DNA of 64,000 nucleotides, taken from contig CANRCZ010000002.1 in NCBI GenBank assembly GCA_947629265.1, positions 6,567 to 70,566 of the forward strand, read 5' to 3'. This DNA comes from an uncultured Bacilli bacterium (lineage in GTDB: Bacteria > Bacillota_I > Bacilli_A > RF39 > UBA660). This document shows, in pieces, positions 3,786-49,980 of the stretch. Position numbers and translations under genes: made by a program. Numbering within the stretch: the first letter of the stretch is position 1; each line of letters opens with the position of its first letter. A model generated the notes under the pieces. That model was not told where the DNA came from and did not search any database. It saw only the letters and a program-made list of their open reading frames with translations.

Positions 3786-4835
3786 ATGAGAACAAATGTT
3801 ATATATATATATATATATAAAATATTTATATTTATAATTGTATTTATATTATTATGGAATAGTATATTCAATATTTTGTGGATAAATAAAAGTCCAATAT
3901 CACTATTTTATAAAGAACCAAAAAATTCTCTAGATATTGTTTACATTGGTAGTAGTAATGTATATGCGTACTTTAATACAACACTTGCTTATAATCAATA
4001 TGGATTTAAAACAGGTATTTTTGCAACAGATATGATGCCATTTTTGACGTATAAATATGCGATAGAAGAGTCATCAAAAACACAAAATCCAAAGCTATAT
4101 GTAATTGATTTAGCTACATCGATTGCTTCTTTAGATGTTTATAGTGAAGGTGATTTTAGAAGAACAATAGATTCTTTTAAATTTTCTAAGACTAGACGTG
4201 ATTTAATAAAATCTATGTATGAATATAAGGATTATTTAAGTTTTGAAATTAATGATATAAATGATTTTTATTTTTCATACCTTATGTACCATAATAAATG
4301 GAAGGAAATAACTGAAAGTTCGTTTAATAATGAAAAAAAATTATTTAAGGGATACTTATTTACATACTTTCAAACTAGAAAAGAAAAACATATTAAGTAT
4401 GATTGGAATTGCACTGAAAAAAAATTGATAAATTATAGCAAAGAAATACTAGAAGATTTATTAGAATATTTAAATAAAAATAATATTAATGTATTATTTA
4501 CTATACCTGTTAAAGTGTATACATTAGAACAAAATCAATATTTAAATAATGTTACCAAGATAATTGAAAAAAATGGATATAAAGTAATAAATTTTAATAA
4601 AGTTGATGATTTAAATATTGATTTTGATAATGATTTATATAATGCAAGTCATTTAAATGTATATGGCGCTACTAAATATACATTGTATTTTTCAAAATAT
4701 TTAAAATCTAATTATAATTTGCCTGATCATAGAAATAATGAAAAATATTCATCTTGGAAGAGTGAATACGAAAGGTTTAAAACAGAATTTAATAATTTAA
4801 CTCAAAGAAATTTTGATGAATTGTTAGATAATTAG
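3786..4835 (+). CDS. MBOAT-partner DltD/AlgJ/DHHW-like protein, paralog 2
   Basis: Tandem paralog of the preceding ORF with the same C-terminal motif (DLYNASHLNVYGATKYTLYFSKYLK). The 5' end contains a (TA)10 tract. Confidence 0.45.
   Translation: MRTNVIYIYIYKIFIFIIVFILLWNSIFNILWINKSPISLFYKEPKNSLDIVYIGSSNVYAYFNTTLAYNQYGFKTGIFATDMMPFLTYKYAIEESSKTQNPKLYVIDLATSIASLDVYSEGDFRRTIDSFKFSKTRRDLIKSMYEYKDYLSFEINDINDFYFSYLMYHNKWKEITESSFNNEKKLFKGYLFTYFQTRKEKHIKYDWNCTEKKLINYSKEILEDLLEYLNKNNINVLFTIPVKVYTLEQNQYLNNVTKIIEKNGYKVINFNKVDDLNIDFDNDLYNASHLNVYGATKYTLYFSKYLKSNYNLPDHRNNEKYSSWKSEYERFKTEFNNLTQRNFDELLDN
3800..3819. repeat. (TA)10 dinucleotide tract inside the 5' coding region of the paralog (encodes IYIYIY)
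   Basis: Read directly: tatatatatatatatatata. Same relative position as in paralog 1. Confidence 0.8.
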
Positions 4836-6960: not shown

Positions 6961-7215
6961 TAAAATTAATTATCCCTGTAATAAATACCAATTATAGAAA
7001 ACGATTTTACTTTAATATAACAAATAAATACTATATAAAAGATTTATGAGTTCCTCATCAAATGTTTGTAGTTATCAAATATTTATTAAAGTTAATTTAA
7101 TAGTTGTGTTGATTTCAGTTTTTCTTTTAGTGGTGTGTCTTGATGGATGGTATCTGATATAAATAGTTATAGTTTTAAGTAATAATTATAACTTTGAATG
7201 ATAGGGTGGGTAATT

Positions 7216-8325
7216 ATGAAAAATTTAAAAGTTGATAGTAAACCAAAAAATCATCGCCAATCAAATATAGAATTACTTAGAATTGTATCGATGTTATTTA
7301 TTATAATGTTTCATTATGTATATAAAAGTGGATATACCTCACCAACATTTACATTTAATTATTTTATAGTAAAATTATTTTATATGCTTGGTGAATTAGG
7401 AGTAAATATATTTATTCTAATAAGCGGTTATTTTATGATAAAAGGTAAGTTTAGTATAAAGAAATTAATTAAATTATTATTAGAAGTAGAATTTTATTAC
7501 CTTTTTTCAGTGTTTATCGCTTCAAAACTAGGAATTTACACAGTTAGTCATACTTTTAAAGGTATATTTATGTTGTTCTTCCCAACTACTTTAAATAGGT
7601 ATTGGTTTATAACAGTTTACGTATTGATCTATATTTTAAGTCCATATCTAAATATACTAGCTAATAACATGGATAAAAAGACTTATCAAAAGTTTTTGTT
7701 TACTGTTTTATTAATATGGTGCGTGATACCAACTTTCTTTGGATTATTTTTTAACGGAACAGAATCAATGTTATATTATTCAAGATTTATCTGGCTTATT
7801 ATAATATATTTTGTTGGTGCTTATATAAGACTAAATCCTGTAAATATTTTTTCTAAAAATAATAATGCCATCATATGTTTTTCAATATCAACAGTGGCAA
7901 CTATTATAGGAATTTTAGGTTTTTATAAATTTAGAAATATTTTAGCAAATTTAGGTACAACAGAAATTGCATATTTTTGGCAACCAAATTCCATTTTAAT
8001 GTTTTTATTAAGTATTTCATTATTCACTATTTTTCTAAAGGTAAAAATAAACTATAATTTTATAATAAATAAATTAGCATCTACAACTTTAGCAGTCTAC
8101 ATGTTACATGATGGTATCTTGCAAGGGTATATTTGGAATAATATTTTTAAAACAAAAATGAGGCTCGGGGGGGGGTATTCTATAATTCATATATTGATTG
8201 CAACCGTAATAATATACCTAGTTGGCAGTGTAATAGATTTAATAAGACAATTCTTATTTGATAACGTACTAGATAGATTGATAAATAACTTTAAATCAAA
8301 AAAAGCATCAGTGCAACTTAATTAA
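7216..8325 (+). CDS. Acyltransferase_3 family (OatA/OafA-like) integral membrane O-acyltransferase
   Basis: NHRQSNIELLRIVSMLFIIMFH and about 10 TM segments are typical of acyltransferase family 3. ATG at 7216 follows GGGTGGG. Contains an in-frame G9 tract at 8167-8175. Confidence 0.6.
   Translation: MKNLKVDSKPKNHRQSNIELLRIVSMLFIIMFHYVYKSGYTSPTFTFNYFIVKLFYMLGELGVNIFILISGYFMIKGKFSIKKLIKLLLEVEFYYLFSVFIASKLGIYTVSHTFKGIFMLFFPTTLNRYWFITVYVLIYILSPYLNILANNMDKKTYQKFLFTVLLIWCVIPTFFGLFFNGTESMLYYSRFIWLIIIYFVGAYIRLNPVNIFSKNNNAIICFSISTVATIIGILGFYKFRNILANLGTTEIAYFWQPNSILMFLLSISLFTIFLKVKINYNFIINKLASTTLAVYMLHDGILQGYIWNNIFKTKMRLGGGYSIIHILIATVIIYLVGSVIDLIRQFLFDNVLDRLINNFKSKKASVQLN
8167..8175. repeat. poly-G tract (G9) inside the acyltransferase ORF
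   Basis: aggctc GGGGGGGGG tattc encodes RLGGGY. The same aggctYggggggggg context recurs at 40858. Confidence 0.85.
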
Positions 8326-8433
8326 AGTTTCAATATGCTTTTTATTTTTATGCAACAATATGTAGATATTGTTAATTTATAGATATGTAAATGATACAAT
8401 AAACTCATTTAATAGATAGATGGAGATGGATTT

Positions 8434-10800
8434 ATGAAAATTAGTAAAATTAAAATAGATAGTTCATTTGCAAAATTTGAAGATGGTGAAATATTAGATT
8501 TATCAACTTTATCAGAAAAAAATCAAAATCGGGTTTTTATATATGGCAGTAATGGTGCTGGTAAAAGTTCATTGTCAAAATTATTTTCAATTGGTAATAT
8601 GAAATTAGATGGCAATTTAGATTATCAAAATAGACTATCTTTATTAAAAACTACCAATAATGATAATCCATTATCTGTAAAAATATATTATAATGAAGAA
8701 GATTATACGGAATTTAATAATGATATTATAAGGCCCAAAAGGATACCTGTTTTTAATAAAGACTATATTGATTCTAAAATAACCTATCAAACTGATTTTA
8801 AAAATAATAAATTTGATCAGCAAGAATCTACATATAGTATTGAATTAGAATCAAAAACCAATTATCATGAAAAACTGAAAGAATTTACAAGAAATAAAGA
8901 AAAATTAGATGAATTAGAATTAAAAATCAATAATGAAATAATGTCAGGCATTAATGAAACAACTAAGGATACAGGTACAACTAAGGCAAATAAGATATAT
9001 ATGGAGGAGTATAATTTTACACAGTTTATAAGTCTGTCAGCTAAATCAATTCCAACTAGTAATTTAGATAAATTAAGATTAGAGCATCAGCAGTTCATTA
9101 AAAATTTAAAAGATTTAACAGAAGAAGATATCATAGAATTTGAAATAAAAGAATTTGATAAAGAAAATAAAATTCAAAAAAGAATAGATGAAATAAACAA
9201 AACAATAAAATTTAATGAAGATAAATCGAAATTAGATTTTGTTAAAAAATATTTAGATAGATATAGTGATGAGGAAAGAGAGTGGAAGATAAAAGGAGCT
9301 ATTTTATTAGGTGATGCTGATAAATGCCCATTTTGTGAACAAAATATTAAAGATATTGGTATAGTTGAATCATACAAGAATTATGTTAATAGCAGTACTA
9401 AAAAAGTAGAAAATTTTATCGAAGGGCAAATTGAATTTTTTAAAAATAGTAATAACGTAGTTAATAACTATATTGAAGGATATATTTTAAAGGCTAAAAA
9501 TGTAGATAAAATTTTTAATACTAATATAGCTGAAGACATTGATTTATTTATTAAAGAATTAATGAACTTTAACAAGCGTGTAATCGAACTTTTAAATAAA
9601 AAATTAAATCCTGAAAATCTATATATTGATTGTTCTGATATTTTAGAGGAGATAGATTTTAATTTGTTTGAAGAATTGGAATATAACTATAATAATCTAG
9701 TAAAGAAAATAGAAGATATTAATAGAAAAGTTACTAGTAATAAAAACGAAAAAGATAAAAGAAATAGAGAATATTTAAGGACAACTGGTAAATATATTAT
9801 CTATAATAAAATTAGGGATGAAATAAAAGAGTATAACTCATTAAAAATTAAAGATACTTTATTATCATCAGAAACTGGAGAATTAAAATCAAAATATCAA
9901 AAAGATATTCAAGAAAAAAATGAACTGTTAAAAACTATCAATAGTATATTAGATGAATTTAATATTACTAATTATAGAGTTGATGAAAATTTTGATATAT
10001 TTTTAAATGATTATAATGTAAGCACAAATGTAGAAAAAATGCTAAGTGATGGTGAAAAAAACATGATAGCATTTGCATTATTTGCAGCAGAACTTAAATT
10101 GCTGTATACAGAATCCGAGAAAGAAATTATATTTATTGATGATCCTATTACATCTGTTGATTATCCTAATTTATACAATATATATAATTACCTTGTAAAT
10201 ATAATTGAAGAAAATAAATCATCACAAATTTTTATTACATCACATAATATCGTATTTTTAAATATGTTAAAATTTAGATATAGTAAAGAAGCTACATACT
10301 ATAAACTATACACAAAACACAATAAGACTTATATTAAAATGGATGATTGTAAGTATGATTCTATTTACTTGGAAAAATTAAAAGAAATTTATAAAATTTC
10401 TAAAGAAAATGAAATAGATAAAAATCAAAAATTATACATTCATAATTATTGTAGGTATGTACTTGAAACACTATCAAGATTTGAATATCCAGATCATAAT
10501 AATGATGCCGATTCTTCTAGAGAATACATCAAAAATCTAAAGAAAGATATTAAAAATGGAAAAGTAAATTTATCAATAAGTGAAAAGAAATTAGATAGTT
10601 TATTAAATATCATTAATAAAGGTTCACATGCAACTTTAGATGTTGTTCATGATGGTGAAATATTTACGGATGAACATTATATTAATGCTTGTAAACAGGT
10701 AATAAATATAATTCATGCTAAGTATGAGGGACAATATCAATTATTAACTAATTCATATTCATCTGATGATTCAAAGAAAGAAAAAATTTCAAAAAAATAG
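8434..10800 (+). CDS. RloC-like Rad50/ABC-type ATPase with C-terminal anticodon-nuclease-like region
   Basis: Walker A GSNGAGKSS, a long coiled-coil insert containing a CPFC (CxxC zinc-hook-like) motif, an ABC signature-like LSDGEK, Walker B IIFIDDP, then a C-terminal region with Arg/Glu/His candidates (NYCRYVLETLSRFE ... KGSHATLD). This 788-aa architecture matches RloC/PrrC. Confidence 0.5.
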   Translation: MKISKIKIDSSFAKFEDGEILDLSTLSEKNQNRVFIYGSNGAGKSSLSKLFSIGNMKLDGNLDYQNRLSLLKTTNNDNPLSVKIYYNEEDYTEFNNDIIRPKRIPVFNKDYIDSKITYQTDFKNNKFDQQESTYSIELESKTNYHEKLKEFTRNKEKLDELELKINNEIMSGINETTKDTGTTKANKIYMEEYNFTQFISLSAKSIPTSNLDKLRLEHQQFIKNLKDLTEEDIIEFEIKEFDKENKIQKRIDEINKTIKFNEDKSKLDFVKKYLDRYSDEEREWKIKGAILLGDADKCPFCEQNIKDIGIVESYKNYVNSSTKKVENFIEGQIEFFKNSNNVVNNYIEGYILKAKNVDKIFNTNIAEDIDLFIKELMNFNKRVIELLNKKLNPENLYIDCSDILEEIDFNLFEELEYNYNNLVKKIEDINRKVTSNKNEKDKRNREYLRTTGKYIIYNKIRDEIKEYNSLKIKDTLLSSETGELKSKYQKDIQEKNELLKTINSILDEFNITNYRVDENFDIFLNDYNVSTNVEKMLSDGEKNMIAFALFAAELKLLYTESEKEIIFIDDPITSVDYPNLYNIYNYLVNIIEENKSSQIFITSHNIVFLNMLKFRYSKEATYYKLYTKHNKTYIKMDDCKYDSIYLEKLKEIYKISKENEIDKNQKLYIHNYCRYVLETLSRFEYPDHNNDADSSREYIKNLKKDIKNGKVNLSISEKKLDSLLNIINKGSHATLDVVHDGEIFTDEHYINACKQVINIIHAKYEGQYQLLTNSYSSDDSKKEKISKK

Positions 10801-39248: not shown

Positions 39249-39479
39249 TTATATATCTTTTCTAATTAGTTCTTTAATTTCAAATTCATCGTTATCACTT
39301 ACAAATAAAATTTTGTAACCACATATTTCAGCGATTTTTTCGATTGTTTCAAAATTGATATCTGTAAAACCTGTTTCATATCTTGAAAGAGTATTTTGTT
39401 TAACATTTATTTTATTTGCCATATCTGTTTGACTTAATCCTTTTTTCTTTCTCATGTATTTAATAGCTAAACCAATCAT
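39249..39479 (-). CDS. XRE-family HTH transcriptional regulator (cassette C)
   Basis: 76-aa HTH protein (KGLSQTDMANKINVKQNTLSRYETG). Confidence 0.55.
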   Translation of the reverse strand: MIGLAIKYMRKKKGLSQTDMANKINVKQNTLSRYETGFTDINFETIEKIAEICGYKILFVSDNDEFEIKELIRKDI

Positions 39480-39606: not shown

Positions 39607-40719
39607 ATGTTTAAAGAAAACGGAAGACTTATAATAGGTATATTTATTGGTGTTATTTTAATGGGAGGGGTTAGCTATGCTGTTAATAGTTTTACAAGTG
39701 AAAGTGTGAGTTATACTAGAAACGGTCAAACGATGAATGTAAAACAAGCATTAGATGACCTTATTGTTAAGGTTGATAAAAAGAGTGGTAACTTTAATAT
39801 TGAACTTACAACAGAACAGACAGTGGTAAAAGATAAGACAGTAGATGCAATGACATATAAAACTATGATTAATAGTGTAATCGATAAAATGATATCTGCA
39901 ATGGGATCAACAGCTAAAATGGCAGAATTAACAGCATTAAAAAATGCAACATCGTTAACATGGGCAAGTGAAAATACAACTATTGCGAGTGTAACGAATA
40001 ATACAACCGTAAAAGGTGTTAAAGTAGGAACAACTAGAGTAATAGGGACAACATCTAATGGCAAACAGGTAATAGTACCAGTAAATGTTAAATCAGCATC
40101 ATATTTAGCTGTTCAAGCTAATGTTGGAGACTACGTAGTGTATAATGCCGGAAAATGGGATTCATCAGCTAATAACCCAACTGAATATTATGCATTTGGA
40201 GAATATAAACAGGGACAAAGCAAAAATGCTAGTGTTGAATGGTGTAGCGATGAAAATAATAAAACGACATTAAAAGGTTGGCGTGTATTATCAAAAGATA
40301 CGAATTCTAAAACAGTAACTATAATCCATGCCGGTCAACCGGAATGCTACCGGCATAATACATATACTTATAGTAATGCTGGTGATGAAAGTGTAGCTAG
40401 ATTAAATTTGCGTGCTAAAAATCAATATTTGAATGCAACATATGCACAATCAGCCAGATCAATGACAAAAGCTGATTTAGATACTATTACTCCTGAAAGT
40501 AACACATTACGAAAAACAGGAGAGATGTATTGGTTGGCTAATGCAAACTCTGGTTACTTGTGGTACGTGACAACTTATGGTACTTTTGTCGATGGTTACT
40601 CAGGTACCTACTCATATGGTTTTCGACCTGTCATTGTTCTAAAACAAGGAATGCTAACAACAGGTAAAGTAAAAGATGAATTTAATCAAGATGCTTGGAG
40701 TTTAGTATTACCAAGCTAA
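39607..40719 (+). CDS. surface protein P3 of the two-Cys C-terminal domain family
   Basis: Signal anchor IGIFIGVILMGGVSYA, an inserted ~110-aa middle region, and a C-terminal domain (VGDYVVYNAGKWD...VEWC...LKGWRVL...HAGQPECYRHN...YAQSARSM...YWL...GFRPVIVLK) with an AT-rich, unremarkable variable segment. Confidence 0.6.
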   Translation: MFKENGRLIIGIFIGVILMGGVSYAVNSFTSESVSYTRNGQTMNVKQALDDLIVKVDKKSGNFNIELTTEQTVVKDKTVDAMTYKTMINSVIDKMISAMGSTAKMAELTALKNATSLTWASENTTIASVTNNTTVKGVKVGTTRVIGTTSNGKQVIVPVNVKSASYLAVQANVGDYVVYNAGKWDSSANNPTEYYAFGEYKQGQSKNASVEWCSDENNKTTLKGWRVLSKDTNSKTVTIIHAGQPECYRHNTYTYSNAGDESVARLNLRAKNQYLNATYAQSARSMTKADLDTITPESNTLRKTGEMYWLANANSGYLWYVTTYGTFVDGYSGTYSYGFRPVIVLKQGMLTTGKVKDEFNQDAWSLVLPS

Positions 40720-40861: not shown

Positions 40862-43800
40862 TTGGGGGGGGGTTATTCAACCCTAAAAAATAAGGGATTT
40901 ACGCTAATAGAGCTATTGGCAGTAATCGTTATATTAGCAATCATCGCAACGATAGCAGTGCCAATAGTATTAAACTTAATTGAACAATCAAGAAAAAATG
41001 CTTTTAAGGATAGTGTCTATGGCATTATGGAAGCAGCAGATCTATTCGTAGTATCAGAAAATTATAATCCTAATGATGAAATAGAATTTGTCTGCGATGG
41101 AGCATCTTGTTCTTTAGATGATGGTAGACAACTATCATTTAAAGGAGATGTACCTATAAGTGGAAGCATTCAAATAAAAGATAAAAATACTTTAGCATAT
41201 TTTATAAAAAGTAATGAATATTGTGCTTTAGGTACAAAAGAAAATTTAGATGTAAATAAAGACTGTACCAAACTAGATTATACAAAAGCTGAAATAGAAT
41301 TAAATTTAGTAAAGTCAACAACTAATAGTGTTATAGTATCATTTGAAGCGACAGATATCGAATCAGGTATATCTAATGTAGAGGTTAAATTAAATGATGA
41401 TGTAAAAAATTTTGAATATGAAAAATCACCAATTGTAACCAGTGGTGAAGCTGGTATAGTATTTGATAAACTAGAAAGTAATAAAGAATACACAGTAACA
41501 TTAACTGTAACAAATGGTAACTACTTAACTGAAACTAAAGATTTAAAAGTATCAACTAAAGAAATGAAAAATCCAGATTTAGTATCTATAAATGATCCAA
41601 CAGAAGCTCAAGATGGATATTTTAAAACTCAAACGATAAAAATAACTTTTGATAAAGAAAATGTATCAGAAACAACCAAACATTATGTAAAGACAACTAA
41701 AGAGGGTACAAGTAGTATAGGGGTTACAAAGAGATGTGGTAATATTGATGATACAGATACACCAGATGTTAATAAATGTGAAACTATAAATAGTACAACA
41801 ACATTAGCAGCAAATGTATGGTATGAAATTGATGGTGATTTAGATGTTAAATATGATAAGACAGATAAAACCACAGATAAAAATTTATATGCAATAACAT
41901 ACGATGGAACAAATTATAGTAATTCATCAACATATACCTTATCTAAAATAGATGGAACAAAACCAACATTAGAAATGAAAGAAATAATATCTAAAACAGA
42001 TAAGTTATCAATAGGATATACCGCAACTGATGATGAATCAGGAATAGAAACAAGAACATGTAAATATGGAACAACTCAAAGTAATTTAGATAAAGAAGGA
42101 GCAATAACTGATACCAATTGTGGCCTTACAAAATTAAATCCAAAAACAACATATTACTATAAAATATGTGTAACTGATAAAGTAGGTAATGAAGAGGTAT
42201 GTAAAGAAGGACATACAGATACACAAGCATTTATTAATCCAAAACTAGATTCAGTTATAAGCCCTACAACAGCAGTAAGTGGCTTTGTGAAGACACAAAG
42301 TATAACAGCAACATTTAACAATGCAAATATAGAAAATCCAAATCATTATATAAAAACAACAAGAGAAGGAACAGCAAGCGATAATGTAACAGAAAGTTGT
42401 GGAAGCGAGGACAATCCAGGTAATTGTACAAGTATTACAGGAACAACAACATTAAGTGCAAATACATGGTATAAAGTAAATGGAACTACAATTACGGTAA
42501 AATATGATAAAGCTAGTACAGCAACTGGAGATACTTTAACAGCCATAACCTATGATGGAACAAACTATAGTGGAGTAGCAACATATACATTATCAAAGAT
42601 AGATGCAACAAATCCAACATTTACAATGAATACAGCAACTTCAACAACAAATAGTATAAGTATACCATATACAGCATCAGATAGTGAAACAGGAGTAAAT
42701 GTAACATGTAAATATGGAACAACAAATGGAAACTATGGAACTAGTGGATCATTAGCAAATAATACATGTACATTATCAGGCTTAAAAGCAGGAACAACAT
42801 ATTACTATCAAATGTGTGCTAGTGATGGAGTAGGAAATGAAGCAACATGTCAAACAAGTAGTTTTGCAACTAAATCAATAACAGCACCAAGTATAACATT
42901 AACAACAAATACAGCAGGGACAGTAGCAAATTACGCATTAAAACAAGTGGCAGCAGTAACATTTAATAAAACTAATGTAACAAGCCCAACATATTATATA
43001 AAAACAACGAAAACAGGAACAAGTAGTTTGGGTGTAACACAAAGTTGTGGAAATGGAACTACACCAGGAACTTGTAGTAATGTAACAAGTACAACAACAT
43101 TAAGTGCAAATCTATGGTACAAAGTAAGTGGAAATGTTAATGTAACATATAGCACACCAAGTACAGCAACAGGAACACTATCAGCCATAACATACGATGG
43201 AACAAATTATAGTACAGCAGCAAGTCAAGCTATAAGTATGATAGAGCAATCTGCAACAAGTATATCATTAAATAAAACAAGTGCAACAATAAAAGAAGGA
43301 GAGACAACAACATTAACAGCAACAATATCACCAACTACAACAACAAATAAGAATGTAACGTGGTCGACGAATAATGCTAATGTAGCAACAGTATCAGGAG
43401 GAACAGTAACAGGAAAAGGAGTAGGAACAGCTACGATAACAGCAAAGACAGCAAATAATCAAAGTACAACAGCAACAATAACAGTACAACCCAAAGGTGA
43501 ATTATTATATGGTAAAGTATCTGTTGGAGATTACGTAGCCTATGATGCTGGAAAATGGGGTGCTGCTACTGATATACCAACATATTCAAGTTCCGTGAAA
43601 TTTGGAGGAAATGCAGCAAATACAAATAAAGGAATGAGTGCAAAATGTTATAATTCTACAACATTAAACGGATGGCGTGTACTTAAAAAAGAAAATAATC
43701 AAGTAACAATAGTCCACGCTGGCCAACCCGAATGTCATTTTCATTATTATTCTGAAATGAACGCTATAACTTTATTAAATAACAGAGCAAAACAATACAT

Positions 43801-44134
43801 GGATTCAACATATGCCGAATCAGCTCATGCTATGACTAGAGATGAAGCCAAAGCAATTACTGGTGATGAGCGTAGTACTGATAACGACTTACGAGACATT
43901 GGAGCGTTTTATTGGCTAGCTAGTATTTCTAGCGAGAGTGTCGGCATGGGCTACGATAACCTTTACCTATTTTACGTTAACGGCGCTGGCGGCATCAACG
44001 AATACGGCAATGGCGTCAATGAAGCGTACGGTTTCCGTCCTGTAGTAGTCTTAAAATCTAATGTCTTAACCTCAGGACAAACAACAGATCAATTTGGAAA
44101 TGCTAAATCTTGGACTTTAGTAGGATTAAAATAA
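40862..44134 (+). CDS. giant prepilin-type (class III signal) surface protein P4: pilin N-terminus, three FN3-like repeats, a Big_2 domain and the family two-Cys C-terminal domain
   Basis: KG|FTLIELLAVIVILAIIATIAVP is a canonical type IV prepilin cleavage/N-methylation motif. Three ~215-aa repeats (...TYDGTNYS...YTLSKIDGT...CKYGTT...YYYK.C..D..GNE) follow. Big_2-like segment SISLNKTSATIKEGETTTLTATISP...VTGKGVGTATITAKT. C-terminal domain VGDYVAYDAGKWG...AKCYNS...LNGWRVL...HAGQPECHFHY...YAESAHAM...YWL...GFRPVVVLK with an NNC/AAC-rich variable segment. The track start is a TTG with no SD. The real start is probably the ATG at 40843 after -1 G slippage. Confidence 0.6.
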   Translation: MGGGYSTLKNKGFTLIELLAVIVILAIIATIAVPIVLNLIEQSRKNAFKDSVYGIMEAADLFVVSENYNPNDEIEFVCDGASCSLDDGRQLSFKGDVPISGSIQIKDKNTLAYFIKSNEYCALGTKENLDVNKDCTKLDYTKAEIELNLVKSTTNSVIVSFEATDIESGISNVEVKLNDDVKNFEYEKSPIVTSGEAGIVFDKLESNKEYTVTLTVTNGNYLTETKDLKVSTKEMKNPDLVSINDPTEAQDGYFKTQTIKITFDKENVSETTKHYVKTTKEGTSSIGVTKRCGNIDDTDTPDVNKCETINSTTTLAANVWYEIDGDLDVKYDKTDKTTDKNLYAITYDGTNYSNSSTYTLSKIDGTKPTLEMKEIISKTDKLSIGYTATDDESGIETRTCKYGTTQSNLDKEGAITDTNCGLTKLNPKTTYYYKICVTDKVGNEEVCKEGHTDTQAFINPKLDSVISPTTAVSGFVKTQSITATFNNANIENPNHYIKTTREGTASDNVTESCGSEDNPGNCTSITGTTTLSANTWYKVNGTTITVKYDKASTATGDTLTAITYDGTNYSGVATYTLSKIDATNPTFTMNTATSTTNSISIPYTASDSETGVNVTCKYGTTNGNYGTSGSLANNTCTLSGLKAGTTYYYQMCASDGVGNEATCQTSSFATKSITAPSITLTTNTAGTVANYALKQVAAVTFNKTNVTSPTYYIKTTKTGTSSLGVTQSCGNGTTPGTCSNVTSTTTLSANLWYKVSGNVNVTYSTPSTATGTLSAITYDGTNYSTAASQAISMIEQSATSISLNKTSATIKEGETTTLTATISPTTTTNKNVTWSTNNANVATVSGGTVTGKGVGTATITAKTANNQSTTATITVQPKGELLYGKVSVGDYVAYDAGKWGAATDIPTYSSSVKFGGNAANTNKGMSAKCYNSTTLNGWRVLKKENNQVTIVHAGQPECHFHYYSEMNAITLLNNRAKQYMDSTYAESAHAMTRDEAKAITGDERSTDNDLRDIGAFYWLASISSESVGMGYDNLYLFYVNGAGGINEYGNGVNEAYGFRPVVVLKSNVLTSGQTTDQFGNAKSWTLVGLK
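40864..40872. repeat. poly-G tract (G9) between the SD-linked ATG (40843) and the body of the P4 ORF
   Basis: aggctt GGGGGGGGG ttattc. At G9 the ATG at 40843 terminates after 14 codons (MKEKIRLGGGLFNPKK*). At G8 it reads through as MKEKIRLGGGYSTLKNKG|FTLIELL... Confidence 0.85.
41560..43230 (+). repeat. three tandem ~640-nt intragenic repeats encoding FN3-like modules of P4
   Basis: Recurring DNA and protein blocks (acatacgatggaacaaattatag..., ITYDGTNYS, TLSKIDGT/ATNPT, TCKYGTT, TTYYYK/QMC). Confidence 0.6.
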
Positions 44135-44285
44135 TAACGAAGAAACTCTAAAATTATTTGGGGTTTTTTTGTTTTATATCAAAAATATAAATGTCGAAAA
44201 TTGTCGTACAATTTTTGATACAAATTTTTTCTAAAAAAAAGGAAATGAAAAAGTTTTGTCGTATCATATAAGTAGGGAGGGAAAA

Positions 44286-46301
44286 ATGAAAAGGTACGCA
44301 TTTGAAAAACAAGATGGTATAAAAGATTGTGGTGTAGCATGTTTAAAAATGATTATAAGATATCATAAAGGCTACGTTGGTACAGAACTATTAAGAGATA
44401 TGACTAAAACCGACAAAAATGGTGTAACGGCTTTCCACTTAGTAAATACATTAAATAAACTAGGTTTTAAATCTAGAGGTTTGAAAGTATCAATTGATAA
44501 TATCAAAACCTTACCAGCCATAGCTCATGTCACTATCGATAACACTTATAATCATTATGTCGTTATATACAATATCAATAAACAAAAAGAAGAAATCCTA
44601 ATAGCGGATCCAGCTAAAAGAATAATGAAAATGTCTTTTCAAAAGTTTAATGAAATATATAATAACATTATTATCGAAGCTATTCCATATAAAAAAATAC
44701 CCGTTATCAAAGATTATTCAATCTCAAAATTCATTCTAAATTTAATAAAAAATGAGAAAAAAATAATATGTATAATTCTAATAATGTCACTAATTACAAC
44801 GGTATTATCGATTATATCATCTTTCTATGTACAGCTATTACTAAATAATTTGAATCGAAAAATAATTATTCTCTTCTTTTTCATGAGTATATTGTTACTT
44901 ATATTAGAATATATAAAAAACAATATCTTAATTAAATTAGATAGTAAGCTTGATCGTAAACTGACGATGAGTACCTACCAAAACATTATAAACCTCCCTT
45001 ATCAATATTTTAAGAACCGAACAACCGGAGAAATAATAACTCGCTTAAATGACTTAAAAAGTGTCAAAAATACAATAAATAGAGTAATTATTACGATCTT
45101 TATCGATGGTATCCTAGTCTTTTTATCAAGTATCATTTTAATCAAAATAAATGTAGTGCTATTCTTAATAGCAGTAACGATTTTGATTATGTATATACTG
45201 ATAACAATCATATTTAATAATAAATTTAAATACGAAATAAACGATATAAAAGAAAAAAACGAATATCTAAATAGTAACCTAATCGAAAGTATCGATGGTA
45301 TTGAAACAATAAAAGGACTAAACCTCCAACCAGAATTTTTAAATAAAGTTGAAAAAATATATACAGATTATATGAAAGAAAGTATAACCCTAGATAAAAA
45401 AATAAATATTCAATTTACCTTAAAAGAAATGGTCAACACTATCGGTAACATGATTATTCTATGTGTAGGTGTATGGTTTATTCAAAAGAAGATAATGGAT
45501 TTCGGTAGTCTATTCACTTTCCTGACTTTAGTAGCTTACTTTTTAAATCCAATTAGAAATATTATCGACTTAAATATCGATATCACTGAATCAATCAGTG
45601 CTATAAAAAGAATCTTAGAACTAGATTACTACCAAAATGATCCTGGTAAAATAAACATTGATGAAATAAACAATATCGAAATAAAAAAACTATCTTATTC
45701 CTATAACGACTACAATTATATATTAAAAGATATCAATTTAAAAATATCTAAAGGTGAACATATTATGGTAGTTGGTACAAGTGGTAGTGGTAAATCTAGT
45801 TTACTAAAAATAATTAATAATTACTATGAAACCAAAAAACAAGTTTATATAAATGATAACGAAATAAACCAATTAAAAAATATACCAATTAATTACATAT
45901 CCCAAAACGAAATTTTATTTACTGACACTTTATTCAATAATTTAAAACTTAATCGTCAAATAGATAAAAACACTATTGAAAAAATATACAAAGAGTACGA
46001 AATCGATAAAATAATTCCTTTAAACGGATTAATCGAAGAAAATGGTTTTAACATATCCGGTGGTGAAAAACAAAGAATTGTACTCGCTAGAACATTATTA
46101 AATCAACCTAAGTTTTTAATTATCGACGAAGCCTTAAATCAAGTAGATATCAACATGGAAAGAAAAATATTAAAACAAATACTAAAAATCAAAAATTTGA
46201 CTTTAATATACGTATCACATCGTAATAACAACGTCGATCTATTTGATAGAGTTATTAAAATCGAAGACGGGTTCTTAAAAGAAGATATCAGAAAGGAATG
46301 A
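44286..46301 (+). CDS. peptidase-C39 domain ABC exporter (bacteriocin/double-glycine peptide processing transporter)
   Basis: N-terminal C39 domain with the catalytic Cys in DCGVACLKMII. Six TM segments. C-terminal ABC ATPase (GTSGSGKSS, LSGGEKQRIVLAR, FLIIDEA). ATG at 44286 follows GGGAGGG. Confidence 0.75.
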   Translation: MKRYAFEKQDGIKDCGVACLKMIIRYHKGYVGTELLRDMTKTDKNGVTAFHLVNTLNKLGFKSRGLKVSIDNIKTLPAIAHVTIDNTYNHYVVIYNINKQKEEILIADPAKRIMKMSFQKFNEIYNNIIIEAIPYKKIPVIKDYSISKFILNLIKNEKKIICIILIMSLITTVLSIISSFYVQLLLNNLNRKIIILFFFMSILLLILEYIKNNILIKLDSKLDRKLTMSTYQNIINLPYQYFKNRTTGEIITRLNDLKSVKNTINRVIITIFIDGILVFLSSIILIKINVVLFLIAVTILIMYILITIIFNNKFKYEINDIKEKNEYLNSNLIESIDGIETIKGLNLQPEFLNKVEKIYTDYMKESITLDKKINIQFTLKEMVNTIGNMIILCVGVWFIQKKIMDFGSLFTFLTLVAYFLNPIRNIIDLNIDITESISAIKRILELDYYQNDPGKINIDEINNIEIKKLSYSYNDYNYILKDINLKISKGEHIMVVGTSGSGKSSLLKIINNYYETKKQVYINDNEINQLKNIPINYISQNEILFTDTLFNNLKLNRQIDKNTIEKIYKEYEIDKIIPLNGLIEENGFNISGGEKQRIVLARTLLNQPKFLIIDEALNQVDINMERKILKQILKIKNLTLIYVSHRNNNVDLFDRVIKIEDGFLKEDIRKE

Positions 46302-46383
46302 TAAAATGAAAATCATAAGATTAATCTTAAAAATAATGCTATTATTTGTTTAAACTAAAAACTAACTAAGAAAGGAGATATTT

Positions 46384-46545
46384 ATGGAATTAAATCAAAA
46401 TGAATTATTAACAATCAATGGTGGTGTCAATTGGAAAATCGTCGGAGGTATCGTCGTAACTTTAATAAGCTTTATCTCTGGAGTAGTAGATGGTTTTACT
46501 CATCCTAAAGCTTGTAGTTTGAAAGGAAAGAAATCATGGGTATAG
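46384..46545 (+). CDS. double-glycine-leader peptide 1 (bacteriocin-like or pheromone-like precursor)
   Basis: Not in the track. MELNQNELLTINGG|VNWKIVGGIVVTLISFISGVVDGFTHPKACSLKGKKSWV. Leader matches the LS-x-x-EL-x-x-I-x-GG consensus. Strong SD AAAGGAGA. The mature part is hydrophobic with GxxxG-like spacing. Confidence 0.5.
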   Translation: MELNQNELLTINGGVNWKIVGGIVVTLISFISGVVDGFTHPKACSLKGKKSWV

Positions 46546-46694
46546 AAAAGAGTGAATTACTAAATATAAAAGGAGGCATTAAAATAACTGCTGCCTTATT
46601 AACAAGTATTTATAAATGCCTAAACTACGTAAGCGAACTAGGAAAAAGCATTGGCTCAACCATCAGACGTATTCAAACTAATAGAATGTGTTAA
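46536..46694 (+). CDS. double-glycine-leader peptide 2 (bacteriocin-like precursor)
   Basis: Not in the track. MGIEKSELLNIKGG|IKITAALLTSIYKCLNYVSELGKSIGSTIRRIQTNRMC, cationic with two Cys. Overlaps the stop of peptide 1. SD GAAAGGAAAG. Confidence 0.5.
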   Translation: MGIEKSELLNIKGGIKITAALLTSIYKCLNYVSELGKSIGSTIRRIQTNRMC

Positions 46695-46696
46695 AA

Positions 46697-46725
46697 TAAA
46701 AGCTTAATGCTTTTATTTTTGTTTG
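46697..46725 (+). terminator. rho-independent terminator after the GG-peptide pair
   Basis: AAAAGC-ttaat-GCTTTT followed by ATTTTTG. Confidence 0.55.
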
Positions 46726-46757
46726 GAAATTGGTATAATATCATTGGGGGATAGATT

Positions 46758-46910
46758 ATGGAAGAACTAGAAAATTTATTAAACGAATTAGAAGAAAATA
46801 TTGAAGCATTACAAGAACAACAAGAAAATTTAGATAATAACGTAAACAAAGGTAATATCTTAAAAGAATTAGACGAAATAATGGGTGATATCGAAAATAA
46901 AACCTTATAG
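46758..46910 (+). CDS. small acidic coiled-coil protein (50 aa)
   Basis: Not in the track. MEELENLLNELEENIEALQEQQENLDNNVNKGNILKELDEIMGDIENKTL with a GGGGGA SD. Function unknown, and not a typical membrane immunity protein. Confidence 0.25.
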   Translation: MEELENLLNELEENIEALQEQQENLDNNVNKGNILKELDEIMGDIENKTL

Positions 46911-46984
46911 TTTAAAAAACAATTAAACGGTAGTTGTTAAATCACTAAACTATGTAGTATAATTTATTAGATGGGAGAGATTTC

Positions 46985-48043
46985 ATGATAGAGAGATTAA
47001 AAAGTATTGAAGAAAAATACAACAGCTTAACTTTAGAACTTACCAAAGAAGAGGTTCTTTCCAACGTCAAAGAAACACTTAGATTAACCAAAGAACAAGC
47101 TAGCTTAAAAGATGCTTACGAAGCTTATCAAGAATATAAAAAAATCGAAAGTGGAATAAACGATGCTTCAGAACTTTTAAAAGATCCTGAAATGGGTGAA
47201 ATGGCTAAAGAAGAATTAGAAGATTTAAAACAAAAAAAAGAAGAACTAGAAAAGAAGCTAGAAATTTTATTGTTACCTAAAGATCCTAACGATTTAAAAA
47301 ATGTTATCGTTGAAATAAGAGGTGCCGCTGGTGGTGATGAAGCTAATATCTTCGCTGGTGATCTATATCGTATGTATTTTAAATATGCTGAAAAACAAGG
47401 ATGGAGTATCGAGGTATTAAACGAAGAACCTAGCGAAGCTGGTGGATATTCCCAAATTGAATTCATGGTCAAAGGTGATAACGTTTACTCTAAATTGAAA
47501 TACGAAAGTGGCGCACACCGTGTTCAAAGAGTACCAGCTACGGAAACGCAAGGACGTGTTCATACCTCAACAGCAACTGTTTTAGTTATGCCAGAAGCTG
47601 AAGAGTTAGATTTTGAACTCGATATGAACGAGGTTAGAATTGATATAACAAGGAGTAGTGGCTGTGGTGGTCAAGGTGTCAATACAACCGACTCAGCTGT
47701 CCGTTTAACACATATTCCAACTGGTATTGTCGTTTATTCACAAACCGAAAGATCACAAATTAAAAATAAAGAAAAAGCTATAAAGATATTAAAGACAAGA
47801 CTATATGATTTAAAAGAACAAGAAAGAGAAAAAGAACTAGGTGCTGAAAGAAAGAACAAAATCGGAACTGGTGATCGTTCTGAAAAGATAAGAACTTATA
47901 ATTATAGTCAAAATAGAGTAACAGATCACCGTATCGGTTTTACTTTAAAACAACTTGATAGAGTAATGGAGGGGGCACTTGATGAAATAATTGAAGCCCT
48001 TATTACAGAAGATCAAAATCGCAAACTTAAAGGTGAAGCTTAA
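46985..48043 (+). CDS. prfA: peptide chain release factor 1
   Basis: PAT tripeptide motif (RVPATETQGR) and the GGQ motif (SGCGGQGVNTT). Confidence 0.9.
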   Translation: MIERLKSIEEKYNSLTLELTKEEVLSNVKETLRLTKEQASLKDAYEAYQEYKKIESGINDASELLKDPEMGEMAKEELEDLKQKKEELEKKLEILLLPKDPNDLKNVIVEIRGAAGGDEANIFAGDLYRMYFKYAEKQGWSIEVLNEEPSEAGGYSQIEFMVKGDNVYSKLKYESGAHRVQRVPATETQGRVHTSTATVLVMPEAEELDFELDMNEVRIDITRSSGCGGQGVNTTDSAVRLTHIPTGIVVYSQTERSQIKNKEKAIKILKTRLYDLKEQEREKELGAERKNKIGTGDRSEKIRTYNYSQNRVTDHRIGFTLKQLDRVMEGALDEIIEALITEDQNRKLKGEA

Positions 48044-48758: not shown

Positions 48759-49043
48759 TCACGAACGTGATTTTTTTTCAATAGTAATTATTAAATCTTC
48801 ACCTTTAGCTACCTCTAAAAATTTATCTAAAGACATTTTATTTCTACCTAATTCATAACTTTGAACTGTGTCCTTGCTTCTATTTATCTTTTTAGCGAAA
48901 TCAGCTTGTGTCATTTCTGACCATTCACGTATTATTTTCAGTATTTCCTTTGGTTCGTAATTGTTAGCTATTATTTTCATATTAACTCCTTTAAATAATT
49001 GTATTAAAAATATATTTACATGTTCTAAAATACGTATTGACAA
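48759..49043 (-). CDS. XRE-family HTH transcriptional regulator (cassette E)
   Basis: 94-aa HTH protein (EMTQADFAKKINRSKDTVQSYELG). Confidence 0.55.
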   Translation of the reverse strand: MSIRILEHVNIFLIQLFKGVNMKIIANNYEPKEILKIIREWSEMTQADFAKKINRSKDTVQSYELGRNKMSLDKFLEVAKGEDLIITIEKKSRS

Positions 49044-49116: not shown

Positions 49117-49980
49117 ATGAAATTGATTAAAAATTTATTGAAACAAAAACTAGGTGTGACCTTTGGATTAGTAGTTGGTGTCATGTTGATGGGTGGTGTA
49201 AGTAAAGGACTTGACCAATATAATAGTACTGGGGTCAGCTATACTAAAAGTGATGGAACAGTAGTTTCGGTAAAAGATGCTTTAGATGAATTGATAACTA
49301 AATCGTCTAAAGTTGATACATTAGAAAAACAGGTAGCTGATTATAAAAAAGTGATTTTTAACTTATATGATAAAGTAGCTGTAGGAGATTACGTAGCGTA
49401 TGATGCTGGAACATGGGATTCATCAGTACCAGATAAACCAATAGAACAAGGAAAGTTCGGTGGATATAGTCAAGGACAAAGTAAAAATTCTAGTGTAGAA
49501 TGGTGTTGGAAAAGTGATTATAAAACAACATTAAACGGATGGCGTGTACTTAAAAAAGATGGTGGAAAAGTTTACCTAGTTCACGCTGGCCAACCTGAAT
49601 GTTATTATCATGCGGGTAGTAGATATATTGACGCCAGTGAAAAAGCCTTAAACGAAAGAGCACAAAGTACTTACTTAAATACAACATATGCAGACTCAGC
49701 ACATGCTATGAATTATCAAGAAGCATATGATATTGATAAAACTGAACCTATGGTTGCTACCAATAATGATTTACAAAAAACTGGAGATTATTATTATCTG
49801 GCTGCTGACTTTACTGGCAGCATCTGGAGCGTGGAAAATGACGGCAGCATGTGGTCCAACAACATCGCCTCGCGAGGTTTTCGTCCCGTCATCGTCCTAA
49901 AAGCAAGCGTTCAAACTACAGGTAAAGTACACGATGAATTTGGACAAGAAGCTTGGAACTTAATATTACCACCTCAATAA
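49117..49980 (+). CDS. surface protein P5 of the two-Cys C-terminal domain family, with an NNC-codon-rich variable segment
   Basis: Signal anchor FGLVVGVMLMGGVSKG. Conserved SVSYTKSDGTVVSVKDALDELI. C-terminal domain VGDYVAYDAGTWD...VEWC...LNGWRVL...HAGQPECYYHA...YADSAHAMN...YYL...GFRPVIVLK. The variable segment 49800-49905 is rich in gac/ggc/agc/atc/tcc/aac/gcc/gtc codons. Confidence 0.6.
   Translation: MKLIKNLLKQKLGVTFGLVVGVMLMGGVSKGLDQYNSTGVSYTKSDGTVVSVKDALDELITKSSKVDTLEKQVADYKKVIFNLYDKVAVGDYVAYDAGTWDSSVPDKPIEQGKFGGYSQGQSKNSSVEWCWKSDYKTTLNGWRVLKKDGGKVYLVHAGQPECYYHAGSRYIDASEKALNERAQSTYLNTTYADSAHAMNYQEAYDIDKTEPMVATNNDLQKTGDYYYLAADFTGSIWSVENDGSMWSNNIASRGFRPVIVLKASVQTTGKVHDEFGQEAWNLILPPQ

Follow-up and report, generated by a model that had tools for sequence, protein, structure and literature searches.

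In a 64,000-nt stretch of contig CANRCZ010000002.1 from an uncultured Bacilli bacterium (the window throughout), two small overlapping genes, pepA and pepB, lie downstream of a gene for an ATP-binding cassette (ABC) exporter with an N-terminal C39 peptidase domain. We consider it reasonably probable that the pair encodes an unmodified two-peptide bacteriocin of the class IIb type, or a fratricin, which would be cleaved and exported by its own peptidase-containing ABC transporter (PCAT). The locus is best explained as a single operon, predicted to run from a promoter through the PCAT gene, a mini-open reading frame (mini-ORF), pepA and pepB to a terminator:

44238–44266, + strand: sigma-H-like promoter (-35 AAAGGAAAT, 11-nt spacer, -10-like element GTCGTATCA)
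44286–46301, + strand: PCAT, ABC exporter with N-terminal C39 peptidase domain, 671 aa (Pfam domains, PCAT1 alignment)
46306–46353, + strand: mini-ORF of 15 codons (MKIIRLILKIMLLFV) with an AAAGGAA Shine-Dalgarno site; leaderless, cationic, hydrophobic
46384–46545, + strand: pepA precursor, 53 aa, a 14-aa double-glycine leader and a 39-aa mature part (ORF, leader, Shine-Dalgarno site, family alignment)
46536–46694, + strand: pepB precursor, 52 aa, a 14-aa double-glycine leader and a 38-aa mature part (ORF, leader, Shine-Dalgarno site, alignment)
46693–46719, + strand: terminator-like hairpin with an 11-bp AT-rich stem and a 5-nt loop, followed by a T-rich run (folding, comparison)

The peptide pair and its exporter

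The pepA and pepB ORFs overlap by 10 nt, and each is preceded by a Shine-Dalgarno site of its own (AAAGGAG for pepA, GAAAGGAAAG for pepB). The PepA precursor consists of the leader MELNQNELLTINGG and the mature part VNWKIVGGIVVTLISFISGVVDGFTHPKACSLKGKKSWV, the PepB precursor of the leader MGIEKSELLNIKGG and the mature part IKITAALLTSIYKCLNYVSELGKSIGSTIRRIQTNRMC. Double-glycine leaders have a hydrophobic residue at position -12, Glu at -8, Leu at -7 and Ile at -4 ahead of the two glycines, and both leaders fit this pattern, with L or I in the first of these positions. The likeness between the two precursors is confined to the leader. A regular-expression scan of all six frames revealed no further double-glycine-leader ORF in the window.

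Mature PepA is a predicted hydrophobic helix, reaching the hydrophobicity of a transmembrane segment, with GxxxG at mature residues 19–23, a DGFxxPxxC motif, a Lys-rich tail and a net charge of +4 (average mass 4171.9 Da). Mature PepB forms a predicted amphipathic helix with GxxxG at mature residues 22–26, an IRRIQT motif, a C-terminal Cys and a net charge of +5 (average mass 4260.1 Da). Single-sequence AlphaFold2 models predict helices at residues 5–13 and 17–39 of the PepA precursor (pLDDT, the model's per-residue confidence score, 70) and one helix at residues 5–51 of the PepB precursor (pLDDT 90).

The PCAT gene starts at the ATG at 44286, behind a GGGAGGG Shine-Dalgarno site, and its product matches three Pfam domains, all over cut-off (Peptidase_C39, 108.8 bits; ABC_membrane, 125.8 bits; ABC_tran, 89.5 bits). 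It aligns end to end with PCAT1 (PDB 4RY2; E = 6e-95) and over its full length with ComA (PDB 8HF7; E = 4e-90). The segments DCGVACL, NHYVVIY and ADPAKR, which we take to be the sites of the catalytic Cys, His and Asp of the C39 domain, face matching PCAT1 segments in register, and a Walker A motif (GTSGSGKS) and a signature motif (ISGGEKQR) are readable in the sequence. The gene product unites the parts by which a PCAT is defined, i.e. a C39 domain with Cys, His and Asp, a six-helix membrane domain and a nucleotide-binding domain. Its score against TIGR01193 (peptide cleavage/export ABC transporter) was 390.3 bits, under the curated cut-off of 523.85, and the second-best NCBIfam match, NF045998 (a Mycoplasma-type PCAT of the Mbov_0121 family), gave 297.3 bits against a cut-off of 500. 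As both cut-offs were missed, the protein appears to belong to a divergent PCAT lineage.

An earlier note, made from the letters of this DNA, had described the two genes with their double-glycine leaders, separate Shine-Dalgarno sites, a C39-protease/ABC exporter immediately upstream and a terminator behind; coordinates, leader consensus and each of these elements bear scrutiny. It had also called the genes unannotated. This holds just for the ORF track that the note used, from which they are missing: both are present, without a name, as gene calls in public NCBI/ENA gene sets.

Conservation of the module and its family relations

Relatives were gathered with the PCAT as anchor, from the contigs of ten PCAT relatives; one more locus (L010) came from a metagenome scan with the pepB alignment. 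This gave 11 loci in addition to the window (L007 to L011 and L013 to L018), while L012 is a second contig with the same PCAT and gene order as L011. The PCATs of these relatives are 42–63% identical to that of the window, and the order PCAT–pepA–pepB recurs in all 12 loci, the window included (in L014, pepB is present though uncalled as a gene). Word-index homology searches with pepA and pepB returned only the peptides themselves. With pepA as query, exhaustive phmmer against 1.84 billion cluster representatives turned up another 18 small proteins (43–54 aa, E <= 1e-3); long matches from the same search were discarded as spurious repeat proteins (P0129 and P0143 examined).

Alignment of 25 PepA sequences revealed G33, G37, P41 and C44 as invariant, within the family motif F-I-x-G-x-x-D-G-Y/F-x-x-P-x-x-C. 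Among the PepB sequences of 10 loci, G36, G40, R44 and the C-terminal C52 are invariant, and the family motif is L-G-R-S-x-G-x-x-I-R-R; each of the two peptides has an invariant GxxxG and one invariant Cys near the C-terminus. Across the loci, mature PepA is 30–39 aa long, hydrophobic (grand average of hydropathy, GRAVY, 0.6–1.5) and carries a net charge of +1 to +5, with GxxxG starting at mature residue 19 (17 in L015). Mature PepB is amphipathic (hydrophobic moment up to 0.74), 37–40 aa long and more strongly charged (+3 to +6), with GxxxG starting at mature residue 22 (20 in L010).

The detectable relatives of PepA are bacteriocin families. NF038034 (lactococcin G-beta/enterocin 1071B) was matched by 24 of the 25 PepA family members and TIGR03949 (class IIb, lactobin A/cerein 7B) by 23. 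Four relatives exceed the TIGR03949 cut-off of 21.5 bits (P0133, 31.3; P0146, 28.2; P0130, 26.8; P0137, 25.9 bits), and the matches of P0133 and P0137 extend to the end of the 45-position model. For NF038034, none of the six members with a score shown reaches 37 bits, and the best E value among all 25 is 7.9e-8. Sub-threshold matches to Pfam PF10439 (Bacteriocin_IIc) occur in 18 of the 25 (best E = 1e-4). Window PepA itself scored 29.3 bits against NF038034 (cut-off 37), 17.6 bits against TIGR03949 (cut-off 21.5) and 15.2 bits against Bacteriocin_IIc (gathering threshold 27.1). Relatives of PepB gave weak NCBIfam matches only (best E = 0.0012), which are taken to be leader matches, and profiles of both peptides compared with PDB sequences yielded just a leader match to carnobacteriocin B2. 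No account of this peptide family turned up in the literature searches. The earlier note had likened the pair to a two-peptide class IIb bacteriocin, a resemblance borne out by these family matches together with the GxxxG motifs, the cationic character and the mature lengths of 30–40 aa.

The module is embedded in core genes. It directly adjoins them in nine loci (L009, L010, L011 and L013 to L018), and in eight of these nine it lies between ylbD–ylbE–rsmD and rpsU–yqeY, with two additional genes before it in L016 and, after it, a glycosyltransferase gene in L011 and a Bro-N gene in L018. The L017 contig stops short of rpsU, and the short L010 contig shows just rpsU downstream. In the remaining three loci (the window, L007 and L008), the module is located directly upstream of prfA. 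Its surroundings in the window are housekeeping and sporulation genes, namely der, a topoisomerase IV/gyrase A-type subunit gene, uvdE, prfA, prmC, a YabP-family gene, yqfD, recO and argS (prfA and prmC named after the Pfam families of their L007 counterparts). Sporulation genes found in these genomes comprise YqfD, the YabP family, YlbD_coat and Peptidase_U4. The genomes are metagenome-assembled genomes of 20–28% G+C, some of them labelled at NCBI as "Bacilli bacterium", "Lactobacillales bacterium" and, in one doubtful case, "Ignavibacteriales".

By their identity matrices, the PCAT and the peptides fall into the same three subclades as the flanking genes. Between the window and L007, identity is 89% for prfA, 64% for the PCAT, 55% for pepA and 56% for pepB; among the rpsU-adjacent loci compared, it is 65–91% for rpsU and 45–62% for the PCAT. 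The shared subclades, together with the lower identity of the module, indicate that it has been inherited vertically while diverging faster than its housekeeping neighbours. No counterpart was found by tblastn against plasmids, nor by a viral scan with pepB.

Two sets of observations concern the exporter gene itself. In L007 (~7259–7261) and L008 (~1423–1425; coordinates approximate), the PCAT is called ~24 codons short, so that the start falls past the catalytic Cys; the in-frame codon at the position of the window ATG is ATT in L007 and ATC in L008, behind a conserved GGAGGTG site. Start codons elsewhere include GTG in L014 and L017 and TTG in L016, which suggests that translation of the exporter begins at weak or near-cognate start codons. 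In addition, a sibling contig (L001; ENA ERZ27249440), ~99% identical and of ~2x coverage, matches window positions 44996–47354. Relative to the window it has a 19-nt deletion in the PCAT gene and a 7-nt deletion in prfA. As the essential prfA is also hit and coverage is ~2x, the indels are probably assembly errors, and decay of the PCAT in this contig was rejected. Its pepA is identical to that of the window; its pepB shows two synonymous substitutions and a single conservative Ser-to-Asn change.

Transcription unit, accessory genes and neighbours

The -10-like element of the window promoter lies ~20 nt upstream of the Shine-Dalgarno site of the PCAT gene. All 11 loci with the upstream region present share the arrangement AGGAwwT, ~14 nt, G(A/T)AT..TAT and then a AGGAGGTG Shine-Dalgarno site (GGGAGGG in the window). 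The sigma-H consensus is RNAGGAWWW at -35 and RNNGAATWW at -10 (PMC8510167). Nearly all loci agree with it at -35; at -10, GAAT is found in L008, L014, L017 and L018, and GTAT or GAAA in the others. L008 fits perfectly (AAAGGAAAT-N11-ATCGAATAA). A search for an RNA element upstream of the PCAT gene gave only a sub-threshold match to Rfam RT-6 at 44170–44243 (27.9 vs. 46.7 bits). The region 44191–44263 holds the sole two copies of TTGTCGTA in the 64 kb, at 44201 and 44256, 55 nt apart. A 13-bp hairpin at 44192–44220 includes the first copy, and the second overlaps the -10-like element; no counterpart of this arrangement was seen in L007 or L008.

At the other end, the 61-nt stretch with the hairpin at 46693–46719 folds at -10.4 kcal/mol (z = -2.25). 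A consensus terminator scan found nothing; it missed this hairpin because the stem is poor in G-C pairs. A hairpin is also located 3′ of the last small gene in all 10 loci examined; those of L007 and L008 occupy the same position, with an altered loop and one extra G-C pair. No terminator lies between the PCAT gene and pepB, and the sole hairpin with a T-run follows pepB, marking the operon end.

Accessory small genes vary between the loci:

L007: mini-ORFs 9296–9343 and 9380–9427; acidic ORF 9835–9993
L008: acidic ORF 3850–4008
L009: mini-ORF 3956–4018; pepC 4357–4527
L010: mini-ORF 395–454
L011: accessory-protein remnant 8072–8221; mini-ORF 8250–8309; pepC 8666–8836
L013: accessory gene 8084–8533; pepC 8843–9019
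L014: mini-ORF 7042–7098; pepC 7437–7604
L015: accessory gene 7069–7524; pepC 7885–8061
L016: accessory gene 7087–7545; pepC 7853–8032
L017: mini-ORF 7069–7134; pepC 7467–7634
L018: accessory gene 7045–7464; pepC 7761–7922

Eight loci contain a third gene, pepC, which overlaps the stop codon of pepB and encodes 53–59 aa; the window, L007, L008 and L010 are without it. PepC lacks a double-glycine leader. Its N-terminus is basic, it contains a single transmembrane helix, and its PepB-like tail (GxxxGTxxR...C) ends in the same invariant Cys. Homology between PepC and PepB is detected by hhalign with a probability of 94% (E = 1.2e-7). We read PepC as a membrane-anchored PepB paralogue, a candidate decoy-type immunity protein and the most plausible factor for self-protection.

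A second accessory gene, for a single-transmembrane protein of 139–152 aa, stands directly 3′ of the PCAT gene in L013, L015, L016 and L018, and a 49-aa remnant of it is found in L011. The L013 and L015 proteins gave weak, near-full-length matches to NCBIfam NF045999 (the MAG1140 family). Mini-ORFs of 15–21 codons with a Shine-Dalgarno-like site occur between the PCAT gene and pepA in seven of the 12 loci, twice in L007, and encode cationic amphipathic or hydrophobic peptides. They are confined to loci without an intact ~150-aa accessory gene (L011 has a mini-ORF and the remnant). The idea that the mini-ORF is a relic of the accessory protein's C-terminal helix found no support in hhalign, though the mutual exclusion stands; possible roles of the mini-ORF are those of an immunity or helper peptide, or of a translated leader.

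The window showed no small multi-transmembrane immunity-like protein within ~15 kb, and its ORFs from 32 to 57 kb, when scanned, gave no histidine-kinase or response-regulator family. Likewise, the Pfam lists of called genes in the 5–8-kb flanks of 10 loci contain no histidine-kinase, response-regulator or LytTR family; no counterpart of the cognate kinase and regulator found within ComCDE and BlpCHR loci appears in them. The earlier note's statement that neither an immunity protein nor a two-component system is adjacent agrees with these scans.

Downstream of the terminator, one further small ORF precedes prfA:

46758–46910, + strand: acidic coiled-coil ORF, 50 aa, net charge -12, with an extended -10 of its own (TGGTATAAT) at 46731–46739

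The earlier note had singled it out as the pair's only neighbour. A neighbour it is; being behind the terminator and having its own extended -10, it is most likely a separate transcription unit outside the peptide operon. Counterparts occur in L007 and L008, and across the three loci the ORF is 50–52 aa long with a net charge of -7 to -13. Each copy follows the operon terminator, has prfA as its immediate downstream neighbour and carries an extended -10 (TGnTATAAT); the copies are weakly similar (E = 6e-4 and 0.12). The ORF occurs in exactly three of the four loci lacking pepC. It had no family match in Pfam or NCBIfam, and a PDB profile search gave coiled-coil noise; assignment as a Spo0E-like or other known small regulator found no support, as no Pfam or NCBIfam match fell below E = 0.004.

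Upstream, the note had implied a link to a prepilin-type giant protein. The upstream neighbours differ in every other locus showing them, so this adjacency appears coincidental and the functional link was dropped. The 1090-aa prepilin-leader protein is one of three paralogous secreted or anchored proteins in the window (39607–40719, 40862–44134 and 49117–49980, + strand). They share a C-terminal domain of ~200 aa (VGDYV.YDAG.W ... GWRVL ... HAGQPEC ... YWLA ... GFRPV.VLK) that has no Pfam match. Small Xre-type helix-turn-helix genes on the opposite strand (39249–39479 and 48759–49043, - strand) precede the first and third paralogues.

Interpretation and comparison with known systems

In the reading that we favour, PepA and PepB would be synthesised as precursors with 14-residue double-glycine leaders. 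Judging from its family and intact catalytic residues, the C39 domain would recognise these leaders and cut after Gly14, and the exporter would secrete the peptides, which should be unmodified and cationic, PepA as a hydrophobic helix of 39 aa and PepB as an amphipathic one of 38 aa. Jointly they may form one membrane-active unit, possibly heteromeric through GxxxG packing, that kills or permeabilises unprotected cells, be they competitors or siblings not expressing the genes. Expression would probably start from the sigma-H-type promoter at the transition to stationary phase or sporulation. In the sister lineages, PepC is likely to serve as a self-protection factor, which would have been lost in the lineage of the window. 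That the module diverges faster than the housekeeping genes beside it is in keeping with antagonism or a specificity-driven system.

In class IIb bacteriocins, the two genes are adjacent in one operon that also contains an immunity gene, double-glycine leaders of 15–30 residues are removed by an ABC transporter dedicated to them, the peptides carry helix-packing motifs (GxxxG or similar), and activity needs both peptides (PMC2850506). The window shows the gene arrangement, the transporter and the GxxxG motifs; its leaders, at 14 residues, are just below the range given, and a PCAT with intact Cys, His and Asp adjoins.

Several points weigh against this reading. Class IIb operons are said always to carry an immunity gene (PMC2850506), and the window operon has none, only the 15-codon mini-ORF; L008 lacks pepC, the mini-ORF and the accessory gene altogether. 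Window PepA lies under every curated family cut-off, and window PepB has no Pfam or NCBIfam match. The window promoter reads GTAT instead of the GAAT of sigma-H at -10, and a scan of the window for the sigma-H-like pattern gave no enrichment (2 matches vs. 2.95 expected); as the pattern alone is no rarer than chance, the sigma-H argument rests on its conservation across diverged loci, and control by such a promoter is probable. A disulfide between the peptides through their two invariant cysteines is possible. Competitive bacteriocins are not usually inherited strictly vertically in the core genome throughout a broad clade, and a physiological role would explain such inheritance equally well. 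Finally, expression, processing and activity of the pair are all deduced from sequence.

The physiological role just mentioned would be non-antagonistic: PepA and PepB would stay with the producer's envelope, e.g. in stationary phase or during sporulation, and be kept by need. The fixed core-genome position in all 12 loci with subclades as in the neighbouring genes, the conserved sigma-H-like promoter, the sporulation genes in these genomes, the transmembrane-like hydrophobicity of PepA and the four loci with no immunity gene (the window, L007, L008 and L010) speak for such a module. Yet its sole detectable homology is to bacteriocin families, its much faster evolution than that of housekeeping neighbours would be atypical of a structural role, its cationic, amphipathic GxxxG architecture is that of class IIb toxins, and the membrane-anchored PepB paralogue in eight loci is easiest read as protection. 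We therefore regard this explanation as improbable, albeit one to be taken seriously. A far smaller share of belief goes to the view that the pair are chance or decaying, unexpressed ORFs and that the exporter serves another substrate, which we hold to be scarcely credible. That expression is only predicted and that the PCAT of the low-coverage L001 contig carries a deletion could be cited in its favour. However, 12 loci keep the invariant Gly, Pro, Cys and Arg residues, the leaders, Shine-Dalgarno sites and terminators at 31–73% identity; L001 leaves the peptides practically unchanged and its prfA is damaged as well; and the window offers no other double-glycine-leader ORF as a substrate.

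The earlier note had also raised the alternative of signalling pheromones. PepA and PepB would then be secreted after processing by the PCAT, like ComC, BlpC and PlnA, and be sensed by a receptor encoded elsewhere. PCATs do export double-glycine pheromones too, and some such peptides are encoded far from two-component systems (PMC7595303). The rapid co-divergence of PCAT, pepA and pepB resembles pherotype evolution, and the window has no immunity gene. This alternative has nevertheless lost ground and now seems distinctly unlikely, given the lack of kinase and regulator families around 10 loci and in the scanned part of the window, mature lengths of 30–40 aa and a GRAVY of PepA of 0.65–1.5. 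Known double-glycine pheromones are roughly 17–27 aa long and soluble. Two co-conserved GxxxG peptides, moreover, fit a heteromeric membrane unit better than a ligand.

A bolder version of the two-peptide toxin reading, which we put forward as doubtful, would make the module, instead of an ordinary competitive bacteriocin, a lineage-defining developmental system of an uncultured clade of very AT-rich spore-forming Bacilli. A sigma-H-type promoter would switch it on at entry into stationary phase or sporulation; a PepA–PepB heterodimer held by GxxxG packing and a disulfide would act on siblings (cannibalism or fratricide) or on the mother cell/forespore envelope; PepC would be a decoy capturing PepA, lost in the sublineage of the window and replaced there, perhaps, by the mini-ORF peptide or the acidic ORF.

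If active, the pair would extend the two-peptide bacteriocins by a family from uncultured Bacilli and would supply antimicrobial candidates with fully defined mature sequences; no family member is named in any database, and PepB has no known relatives. A toxin-like module is here fixed at a core-genome position though the PCATs are just 42–64% identical. It could show how a two-peptide toxin becomes tied to development, for which CibABC is a precedent, and how immunity arises by duplication of a toxin gene (PepC from PepB). Unusual in comparative terms are the inheritance in the core genome, the new family formed by PepB, the membrane paralogue derived from it and the conserved alternative-sigma-like promoter. 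Current understanding would change only upon experimental confirmation.

Among known systems, the lactococcin G, enterocin 1071 and plantaricin EF/JK loci likewise have a side-by-side two-peptide operon. As in class IIb generally, double-glycine leaders occur here together with a C39 ABC transporter of the type dedicated to cutting them, and the mature peptides of 30–40 aa are cationic and helical (here by prediction) with GxxxG in each. Unlike class IIb bacteriocins, the window operon has neither an immunity gene nor an accessory protein, no known bacteriocin is detectably related to PepB, each peptide of the family has one invariant Cys near its C-terminus, and the module appears vertically inherited in the core genome instead of residing on a variable island or plasmid. 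The PepA-family motif GxxDG(Y/F)xxPxxC(N) could not be attributed to TIGR03949.

For the exporter, PCAT1 of Clostridium thermocellum (4RY2) and ComA (8HF7) have the same domain order as the window PCAT, and their C39 Cys, His and Asp segments align with it. The Mycoplasma families NF045998 and NF045999 offer another comparison. The adjacency of the two accessions hints at a related system in Mycoplasma, where, by our guess from the accession numbers, the models presumably describe neighbouring genes. All scores are far under the cut-offs of 500 and 35 bits, respectively (accessory proteins of L013 and L015, 13.4 and 12.8 bits vs. 35), and the window, in contrast to that pair, lacks the accessory gene. 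In literature searches, one paper carried Mbov_0121 as a table entry only, and no paper on MAG1140 was found.

The pheromones ComC/CSP, BlpC and PlnA, with their ComAB-type exporters, share leader and exporter types with the window. They differ in that no sensor kinase or response regulator is found near the present loci, and in that two co-conserved peptides, longer and far more hydrophobic, are encoded here.

Among functional precedents for a developmentally linked core-genome pair, pneumococcal CibAB comes closest. It is a two-peptide fratricin encoded in the core genome, and CibC is its transmembrane immunity peptide (PMC7595303). The module resembles it as a core-genome double-glycine peptide pair accompanied, in the sister loci, by a small transmembrane candidate protector, PepC; this likeness to CibA, CibB and CibC is one of gene arrangement and description. 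The order of genes also corresponds, with cibC after cibAB as pepC after pepB, and cibABC is under ComX, a sigma factor of the sigma-H family, which parallels the sigma-H-like promoter found here. In contrast to CibAB–CibC, the present module includes the PCAT gene in the same operon, its PepC is, in our reading, a paralogue of PepB, and pepC is missing in the lineage of the window.

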